Shown here: positions 26,481 through 26,635 of the stretch, one piece after another | Numbering within the stretch: position 1 is the first letter of the stretch | Layout of the letters: each line of letters starts with the position of its first letter | Source: an uncultured Clostridia bacterium | Lineage (GTDB): Bacteria; Bacillota; Clostridia; Christensenellales; UBA1242 | DNA: 64,000 nucleotides | NCBI GenBank assembly: GCA_934778215.1 | Contig: CAKVOE010000001.1 | Coordinates: 9,273 to 73,272, forward strand | Direction: 5' to 3' | The notes under the pieces: generated by a model | What the model was told of the DNA's origin: nothing | Database searches by the model: none | What the model saw: the letters and a program-made list of their open reading frames with translations, nothing else | Made by a program: the position numbers and the translations under genes

Positions 26481-26635
26481 AGACCGCCTATTAGTATAAT
26501 AGGTGGTCTTTTTTGAAAGAAAATCCCTTAAACATAGCCAAATTTTAAAACTAATGCTAAAAAAGTTGATATATTTATGTCATTAGAGTAAAATATTATT
26601 AGAAAAAGACCACCTATTATACTAATAGGCGGTCT
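26481..26635 (+). promoter_or_regulatory. Candidate invertible promoter cassette, ON orientation relative to the 26667 gene
   Basis: A perfect 33-bp inverted repeat spans 26481-26513 and 26603-26635 (AGACCGCCTATTAGTATAATAGGTGGTCTTTTT and its reverse complement). It encloses 89 bp that contain TTGATA (26566-26571), a 17-nt spacer and TAAAAT (26589-26594), pointing toward ATG 26667. The left copy, flanked by A and T runs, also serves as the nrdG terminator. Confidence 0.45.

Follow-up and report, generated by a model that had tools for sequence, protein, structure and literature searches.

An invertible segment with a putative promoter upstream of a predicted secreted, tail-fibre-like protein in an uncultured gut Clostridia bacterium

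The segment at 26481-26635 of the window, i.e. of the whole 64,000-nucleotide stretch of DNA from an uncultured Clostridia bacterium that was analysed here, is very probably a real invertible promoter switch with lox-like sites and the ON/OFF read-out proposed below. Its 89-bp middle occurs in both orientations across independent metagenome assemblies, as would be expected from an original prediction that had read the cassette as a phase-variable promoter. The natural ON and OFF alleles, which share an otherwise identical background, are proof at the sequence level of DNA inversion in an uncultured human-gut Firmicute, which would thereby vary a predicted secreted, tail-fibre-like putative binding protein.

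Architecture and natural orientations of the cassette

The cassette is located between nrdG (25630-26319) and an open reading frame of 664 aa (26667-28661), in a window with a G+C content of ~33%. Re-measurement by inverted-repeat analysis gave arms of 33 nt at 26481-26513 and 26603-26635 that are 100% complementary and enclose 89 nt, exactly the perfect repeat described before. The 29-nt arm core has only 2 sites in the 64-kb window when up to three mismatches are allowed (<=3), while 0 are expected in shuffles. Each arm is a 13+3+13 near-palindrome, AGACCGCCTATTA-GTA-TAATAGGTGGTCT, with the asymmetric centre that had been ascribed to it, and the partner arm is the exact inverse of the other; the arms hence present the half-sites and spacer of a tyrosine-recombinase core site. 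The promoter-like sequence TTGATA-N17-TAAAAT (10/12 consensus matches) was likewise located as claimed, at 26566-26594 on the + strand facing ATG 26667, with 8 nt between the end of its -10 box and the right arm. The spacing had to be corrected: instead of 122 bp for this cassette and 131 bp for a sister cassette at 39.6 kb, the palindrome centres are separated by 126 and 127 bp, respectively. An Rfam scan of the window returned a tmRNA and one tRNA only and no known RNA family in the cassette. A further promoter-like sequence that extends into the left arm, TTCAAA-N18-TATAAT (26471-26500), was rejected as probably due to chance, since its -35 element is not conserved in a paralogous cassette (L103, see below). 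The features discussed in the following are:

26473-26480, outer A8 beside the left arm; together with the arm a hairpin that is terminator-like in both directions
26481-26513, unstranded, left arm: a repeat that folds, with core site 26485-26505 (CGCCTATTAGTATAATAGGTG), an inner T5 and 0 consensus mismatches
26514-26602, unstranded, invertible segment of 89 bp, ON in the window and flipped elsewhere
26566-26594, + strand, putative sigma-70-type promoter TTGATA-N17-TAAAAT, predicted start ~26601-26603 at the edge of the right arm
26603-26635, unstranded, right arm, core site 26611-26631 (CACCTATTATACTAATAGGCG); expected to give the mRNA a 5' stem-loop
26636-26666, + strand, remaining 5' UTR with RBS GGAGA at 26655-26659, kept in paralogous cassettes
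26667-28661, + strand, controlled gene of 664 aa with a signal-like N-terminus and a tail-fibre-like predicted fold
28703-28736, + strand, intrinsic terminator of the 664-aa gene, CCTTATGGTAA...TTACCATAAGG then T6; the hairpin is also listed on the opposite strand
39523-39678, unstranded, sister inverton adjoining the recombinase, OFF in the window for the gene of a 1690-aa surface protein
39721-40614, - strand, tyrosine recombinase (Pfam Phage_integrase), candidate invertase of both cassettes

Contigs carrying the locus were retrieved from independent human-gut metagenome assemblies by exact identity of the encoded 664-aa protein or of NrdG, and orientations were compared between assemblies of different samples. 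The shorter annotated starts were used for retrieval; the longest-ORF starts (233-aa NrdG, 302-aa recombinase) gave no contigs or short ones. The 89 bp are in the ON orientation in the window and in ERZ27286955 (L002), which is identical to it. They are OFF in a 223-kb contig from the Hadza (ERZ4561781, L001/L003) and in ERZ27286970 (L009), where arms and flanks are unchanged and enclose the exact reverse complement. Two contigs of the MERR22 study are also OFF, one with an OFF junction whose contig ends 13 nt into the inverted middle (L005) and one carrying a different, paralogue-type middle (L004). Between the Hadza contig and the window, 0 mismatches were found outside the inverted segment over 22630-30877 (8.2 kb), which indicates a very recent inversion in an identical background.

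The flipped 89 bp are found in long contigs of 153-251 kb that originate from independent samples and different assemblers. According to its contig name, one assembly was made with k=141; this exceeds the arm length, and the arm-to-middle junctions were therefore read directly. The contigs that break at the cassette (L005, L009 and L006-L008) fit a mixture of orientations and also fit three copies of the repeat. Two properties of invertons, a short segment bounded by inverted repeats and the presence of either orientation between unchanged flanks, are observed at this locus.

Predicted read-out and the controlled protein family

In the window, the putative promoter is directed towards the ATG; in L001, it has the opposite direction. 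Of the invertible segment, the promoter half is 43/44 identical to that of a paralogous cassette, compared with 29/45 in the other half, and hence appears to be selectively conserved. The left arm sits between A8 and T6 and folds with -23.7 kcal/mol on the + strand, followed by U6, and with -20.6 kcal/mol on the - strand, followed by U8. The right arm is followed by AAAAA on the + strand and by U5 on the - strand. A stable GC-containing hairpin with a U-tract, the signature of Rho-independent terminators, is accordingly present in the left arm on both strands and in the right arm on the - strand. It is missing from the right arm on the + strand, the direction of ON read-out, so that the ON transcript should pass. 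Two earlier suggestions thereby hold up: that no U tract follows the right repeat on the + strand and, as far as folding goes, that the left repeat could act as a two-way terminator against nrdG read-through and against the flipped promoter. The outer flanks are kept in the paralogous cassettes, with A7-8 on the left and AAAAATTGG or AAGAATTGG on the right. We infer promoter activity and termination at the arms from sequence features of this kind.

Probably, the two lox-like sites, which lie head to head, are recombined with each other; this arrangement would result in inversion of the enclosed 89-bp promoter segment. In the ON state seen in the window, the promoter would fire rightward from ~26601 and its transcript would pass the right-arm hairpin, giving expression of the single gene at 26667-28661 up to the terminator at 28703-28736. 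In the OFF state, the promoter would be directed leftward into the left-arm hairpin with its U8 and, judging from folding and geometry, should be terminated almost at once, leaving a short terminated RNA only. On the same grounds, transcripts reading through from nrdG should end at the left arm (hairpin plus U5-6) whichever way the segment lies, which would make the 664-aa gene dependent on the switch. The OFF state may be leaky, since a weak promoter-like sequence on the + strand, ATGACA-N18-TAGCAT, then faces the 664-aa gene. The next gene, with a probable start at 28832, has its own promoter-like site. Together with the terminator of the 664-aa gene itself, this suggests that the switch controls a single gene and that the controlled unit is monocistronic.

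The 664-aa protein carries an N-terminal hydrophobic, signal-like segment and has no match in Pfam or NCBIfam. It has ~100 homologues, of which all named ones are hypothetical proteins. Its AlphaFold model (pLDDT 86, pTM 0.88) resembles predicted phage tail and tail-collar fibre proteins, some of them crAss-like (E 1e-16 to 1e-10, TM 0.4-0.5), and shows a weaker likeness to TaqVP, the variable protein of a diversity-generating retroelement (DGR; E 1e-3, TM 0.27/0.44). The product is hence predicted to be a secreted protein with a fold like those of phage tail fibres and DGR variable proteins. A role as a DGR variable protein or target was nevertheless rejected: the fold likeness is weak, the window contains no template repeat that corresponds to the 3' end of the gene, and none of the scanned window ORFs was seen to encode a reverse transcriptase.

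At least two further cassettes of this kind are present in a related strain. Two more paralogues on scaffold_13 of ERZ28614050 are each preceded by a cassette that has the same core and spacer. One of these cassettes, next to spoIIP and P0025, has arms identical to those at 26481-26635; it is ON in L103, whereas a separate contig that covers the L103 locus in another sample (L104) has it OFF. The other lies within a cell-division cluster, between a gene for a POTRA-domain (FtsQ-like) protein and ftsA, and is in the OFF state in L109; two positions of its left arm are changed, and one half-site of that arm reads CATCTATT. All three cassettes of the 26481-26635 type have the spacer TAGTATA in common, and at least three cassette-plus-paralogue modules are present in one genome. 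The duplicated module extends into the gene from another terminator hairpin, located ~50 bp upstream of the left arm. Among the paralogues, the N-terminal part is conserved, while the C-terminal third of P0025 (roughly its last 120 residues) shares only 42-47% identity with P0001, a divergence that would fit a variable binding domain. With several paralogues each having its own copy of the cassette, the cell could vary the versions it displays. P0025 and P0026 have no cassette; they are preceded by a fixed promoter that is homologous to the one in the cassette, a further point in favour of the putative promoter. P0041, which like P0026 is a more distant homologue of the 664-aa protein, also has an ordinary fixed promoter and no cassette.

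A connection between these loci is apparent from L004. Its flanks and gene represent the orthologue of the window locus, with 98.7% identity, and its 89-bp middle is 89/89 identical to the middle of the paralogous cassette. By alignment, this is a precise exchange bounded by the arms.

Recombination sites, candidate recombinase and competing explanations

The window contains 5 matches to the core CTAT-N7-ATAG, which had been proposed to be shared by both window cassettes. This is more than the 0.93 expected by chance, and three of these five matches are inside the two cassettes. The core is exact in three of the four arms, whereas one arm at 39.6 kb reads CTAT...ATAA. The core proved to be real and to form the centre of a longer family consensus, CRYCTATT-N5-AATAGRYG, that consists of two inverted half-sites around an asymmetric centre and is matched with 0 mismatches by the arms at 26481-26635 and with 2-3 by those at 39.6 kb. 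A scan with GACCRCCTATTANNNTAATAGGYGGTC (one genome per species) identified 7 loci in uncultured Clostridia, in metagenome-assembled genomes labelled Anaeroplasmataceae or Anaeroplasma, and in Firmicutes bacterium CAG:449. In each of the 7, a more degenerate partner arm lies at a distance of ~125-170 bp and has its central trinucleotide inverted, and most show a promoter-like sequence between the arms. In two of them, L011 and L016, a homologue of the 39721-40614 recombinase directly adjoins the cassette (36-38% identity, E ~1e-55).

The reverse approach, a metagenome scan with an alignment of the recombinase, gave 80 loci. Here, CTAT-N7-ATAG was matched 63 times compared with ~11 in shuffles, and a relaxed pair search revealed 30 cassettes (17 non-redundant), mostly just 3' of the recombinase gene and in a few cases 5' of it. 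Their half-sites follow C-R-Y-C-T-A-T-T-(A), with C at position -3 in 68/68 although the search did not demand it. Both orientations of family cassettes exist in nature (L044 vs L045, L063 vs L092), and exchange in these natural recombinants is confined to a shared core of ~18 bp (crossover within 17-18 bp). On the basis of this enrichment beside recombinase homologues, CTAT-N7-ATAG is the centre of a genuine recombinase-site motif, and the most fitting reading of each arm is that of a complete lox-like site. No mention of CRYCTATT-N5-AATAGRYG was found in a full-text literature search or in the supplements of one paper.

A plausible candidate for the invertase is the tyrosine recombinase encoded at 39721-40614, 13 kb from the cassette. 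It is the only recombinase found in the window by Pfam scans of 31 ORFs, and it retains the catalytic residues R, K, H, R, H and Y. Among solved structures, the Tn1549 integrase is its nearest relative. Its scores against Xer and integron integrase models fall far short of the curated cut-offs. The protein database holds ~2,770 homologues, and a functional name is attached to 0 among the 120 listed. The adjoining cassette at 39523-39678 is a real inverton too: it has the window orientation in L017-L021 and is flipped in L022, which corresponds to ON for the gene of the 1690-aa surface protein (34428-39500, - strand). The arms of the two window cassettes differ in the outer half-site positions and in the spacer (CCGCCTATTAGTATAATAGGTGG vs ACATCTATCTTACACATAGATGT); the spacer is CTTACAC at 39.6 kb rather than TAGTATA. 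CATCTATT and CGCCTATT, the half-site types of the two window cassettes, are nevertheless mixed inside single cassettes of L011, L046 and L109, which suggests that one enzyme of the family can accept both. In another strain, the recombinase and two other cassette copies are present on one 477-kb scaffold. The earlier suggestion that both window cassettes are served by the same or a related recombinase thus finds its support in association, and that 39721-40614 itself flips 26481-26635, rather than an unseen paralogue, may be held with slightly more belief than doubt.

Alternatively, the inverton could be flipped by a different tyrosine recombinase of the same family that is encoded outside the window, with 39721-40614 serving its adjacent cassette only. 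This is a somewhat unlikely reading, but one that deserves to be taken seriously. The closest matches to the arms, AGACCGCCTATTA...TAATAGGTGGTCT, are those of L016 and L044, and identical 13-bp half-sites are found in L016, L044 and L045, next to recombinases that are 38-39% identical to that of the window; hence, an unseen paralogue could be the true invertase. By comparison, the 39.6-kb cassette of the window and the cassettes of 80%-identical orthologues (L023, L024) use the variant core CTATCTTACACATAG. Moreover, some switches of C. difficile are independent of the master recombinase RecV (PMC5903667). On the other hand, a second recombinase was found neither in the 64-kb window nor in ~27 kb around two other cassette copies, one consensus fits both window cassettes, and the combination of both half-site types in single family cassettes and the joint location of recombinase and cassettes on one scaffold speak for a shared enzyme.

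Inversion by the window's own recombinase or another of its family also has to be weighed against general homologous (RecA-type) recombination between the 33-bp repeats without any dedicated enzyme. The arms at 26481-26635 are perfect, so that the crossover point cannot be narrowed below 33 bp, as this mechanism would allow. It is very improbable all the same: distant taxa share the arm as a conserved motif associated with recombinases, exchange in relatives with imperfect arms is confined to a 17-18-bp shared core that is too short for efficient homologous recombination, and inversions recur at three or four loci in a handful of samples. Finally, the alternative attached to the original prediction, that the cassette is only a duplicated terminator hairpin or a REP-like element whose orientation differences are assembly artefacts, retains a negligible probability, because, even though each arm is a stable hairpin (the left one resembling a bidirectional terminator), arm copies exist elsewhere in the genome and several contigs break at the cassette, only 2 copies lie in the window, all others found are paired cassette arms that flank the same promoter upstream of a paralogue rather than dispersed generic REP or terminator elements, and the exact inverted 89 bp between unchanged arms, with directly read junctions in long contigs from independent samples and assemblers, excludes both a mere terminator and an artefact.

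A proposed inverton family and its relation to known systems

Invertons are well known in gut bacteria (PMC11892184, PMC11602134), and this kind of element is therefore not new; by analogy, the cassette at 26481-26635 appears to work like the RecV switches of C. difficile. New are the site and recombinase family, of which no description was found in the literature searched, the terminator-like arms, and the multi-copy modules in front of tail-fibre-like proteins. Tentatively, gut Firmicutes may harbour a widespread family of "self-insulated" invertons to which this cassette belongs, a proposal that is on balance doubtful when its components are taken jointly. One recombinase family would recognise lox-like CRYCTATT-N5-AATAGRYG sites that double as directional terminators and whose spacing (about 127, 148, 159 and 169 bp) would correspond to whole helical turns. 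Cassettes with the same spacer could swap promoter segments precisely between loci. A single enzyme would serve a whole regulon, here comprising paralogous tail-fibre-like lectins and a giant Ig-repeat surface protein, and in relatives DNA methyltransferases and ResIII/HA-domain helicases. Cassettes of the family are located upstream of DNA methyltransferase and helicase genes in relatives, and the family may hence drive phase-variable epigenetic or defence states. With the site motif and the recombinase family now recognisable, such switches can be found in genomes for which no read data exist. If working as predicted, the layout of hairpin and U-tract would represent a compact, tightly insulated switch of possible use in synthetic biology.

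Several known systems share individual traits with the cassette. In Cre/loxP, FLP/FRT and Xer/dif, two inverted half-sites surround an asymmetric spacer that sets polarity; sites of this type that are placed head to head give inversion, and partner sites need the same spacer. The arms described here have the same layout of half-sites and spacer, yet they belong to a chromosomal regulatory switch and not to a plasmid, phage or dimer-resolution system. The mpl genes of Mycoplasma penetrans (P35 family), studied by Horino et al. in 2003 and 2009, reportedly have small invertible promoters for each gene that are acted upon by tyrosine recombinases and result in combinatorial expression. A paralogous family of surface or secreted proteins, each gene with its own switch, is common to both cases, a likeness of arrangement. 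The repeats, in contrast, measure 33 bp here and 12 bp in M. penetrans, and the regulated proteins are unrelated. The organisms differ as well: the genome described here encodes SpoIIP and thus belongs to a spore-former lineage, unlike M. penetrans.

The invertons of gut bacteria are promoter segments within inverted repeats that control surface structures and have been classified according to their repeat motif and associated with invertases in the vicinity (PMC11892184). Like those of Bacteroides and other gut commensals (PhaseFinder-type; Mpi, tyrosine invertases), the present cassette is a promoter-bearing segment flanked by inverted repeats, but it occurs in another phylum, with a predicted sigma-70 TTGATA/TAAAAT promoter and another repeat motif.

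The closest parallel is offered by the RecV switches of C. difficile (cwpV, flgB and others), which are also short invertible segments upstream of a Firmicute gene that are flipped by a tyrosine recombinase. For cwpV, Emerson et al. are said to have reported in 2009 that transcription termination is part of the ON/OFF logic. RecV serves several switches distant from its own gene (PMC5903667), as one enzyme probably does here. In the model proposed for its repeats, a short asymmetric spacer is enclosed by two palindromic binding elements (PMC12282940). The likeness is one of arrangement and site model. Membership in the RecV site family was rejected, as the RecV motif AWAGTWNCCNTTW-N6-WAANGGNWACTWT (PMC12282940) has no match in the window with up to three mismatches (<=3). 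What sets the cassette apart from the RecV switches is that the invertible segment holds the promoter itself and that its arms are terminator-like hairpins.

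Possible exchange of the cassette between loci

Precise exchange of the invertible promoter cassette (26481-26635) between loci is suggested by the corresponding nrdG locus of another strain (L004). There, the 89-bp middle (3885-3973) matches that of a paralogous cassette (L103, ~5407-5495) at 89 of 89 positions, despite flanks and a gene that are those of the window locus. On sequence grounds this looks like an exchange for which the arms served as boundaries. The spacer TAGTATA is common to all three cassettes of this type.

Two features lie just upstream of the left arm or reach into it:
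26424-26461, degenerate hairpin AACGCTCTAT...ATAAAGCGTT, immediately upstream of the left arm
26471-26500, promoter-like TTCAAA-N18-TATAAT, whose TATAAT is the centre of the left arm

The hairpin is the start point of the duplicated module, and at the loci of the paralogues (L103 and L109) its counterpart is a perfect terminator. The promoter-like element is probably a chance match, because the paralogous cassette does not preserve the -35 box.

In L109, a cassette copy (8817-8975) and its paralogue are inserted into the cell-division cluster, with a POTRA-domain (FtsQ-like) gene on one side and ftsA/ftsZ on the other. A second copy, ~16 kb distant, has the same orientation, and essential genes would be lost if the two recombined.

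The sister cassette and contig ends

The flipped orientation of the sister cassette (39523-39678), located beside the recombinase gene, occurs naturally: a metagenomic locus, L022, carries it ON for the surface protein gene that it controls, and it is OFF in the window and in L017-L021. Exchange was limited to ~17 bp around the spacer CTTACAC. The controlled gene is:
34428-39500, - strand, 1690-aa surface protein

Ig-like repeats of this protein match Big_3, He_PIG, Flg_new and MBG, and it also matches MpPF1, 'M. penetrans paralogue family 1'.

Many metagenome contigs (L005, L006-L009, L017 and L018) stop at or near the two cassettes, as do the ends of scaffold_13 and scaffold_1345 of ERZ28614050. 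Such breaks are expected of invertible and/or multi-copy elements.

Neighbouring genes in the window

Genes around the cassettes include:
28766-30346, 526-aa ORF without Pfam match
30339-31043, DUF6320 protein, next after the 526-aa ORF
33817-34167, tmRNA gene, immediately following smpB and the RNase R gene

The surroundings with tmRNA, smpB and the RNase R gene are an ordinary housekeeping context, which shows that the cassette lies outside any mobile element. The 526-aa ORF probably starts in truth at ATG 28832, behind AAGGGGG; its sequence includes FHAVADG, which recalls the HxxxDG motif found in acyltransferase and condensation domains.

Spacing and gene context of related switches

Among 30 cassettes (17 non-redundant) in L010-L102, a set of loci from MAGs and metagenome contigs, site-to-site spacing falls into classes of 126-129, 147-149, 158-159 and 169 bp, with intermediate values absent and steps of about one or two helical turns. 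A phasing requirement for synapsis within a very small loop could explain these classes, as could common ancestry.

Switches of the same family in other gut Firmicutes precede genes for ResIII/DEAD helicases with HA-domain repeats (L010, L011, L012, L047 and L063), an N6_N4 methylase gene (L014 and L078) or a D12 methylase gene (L016). The DNA methyltransferase and HA-domain helicase genes behind these switches suggest phase-variable methylation or defence functions in these bacteria.
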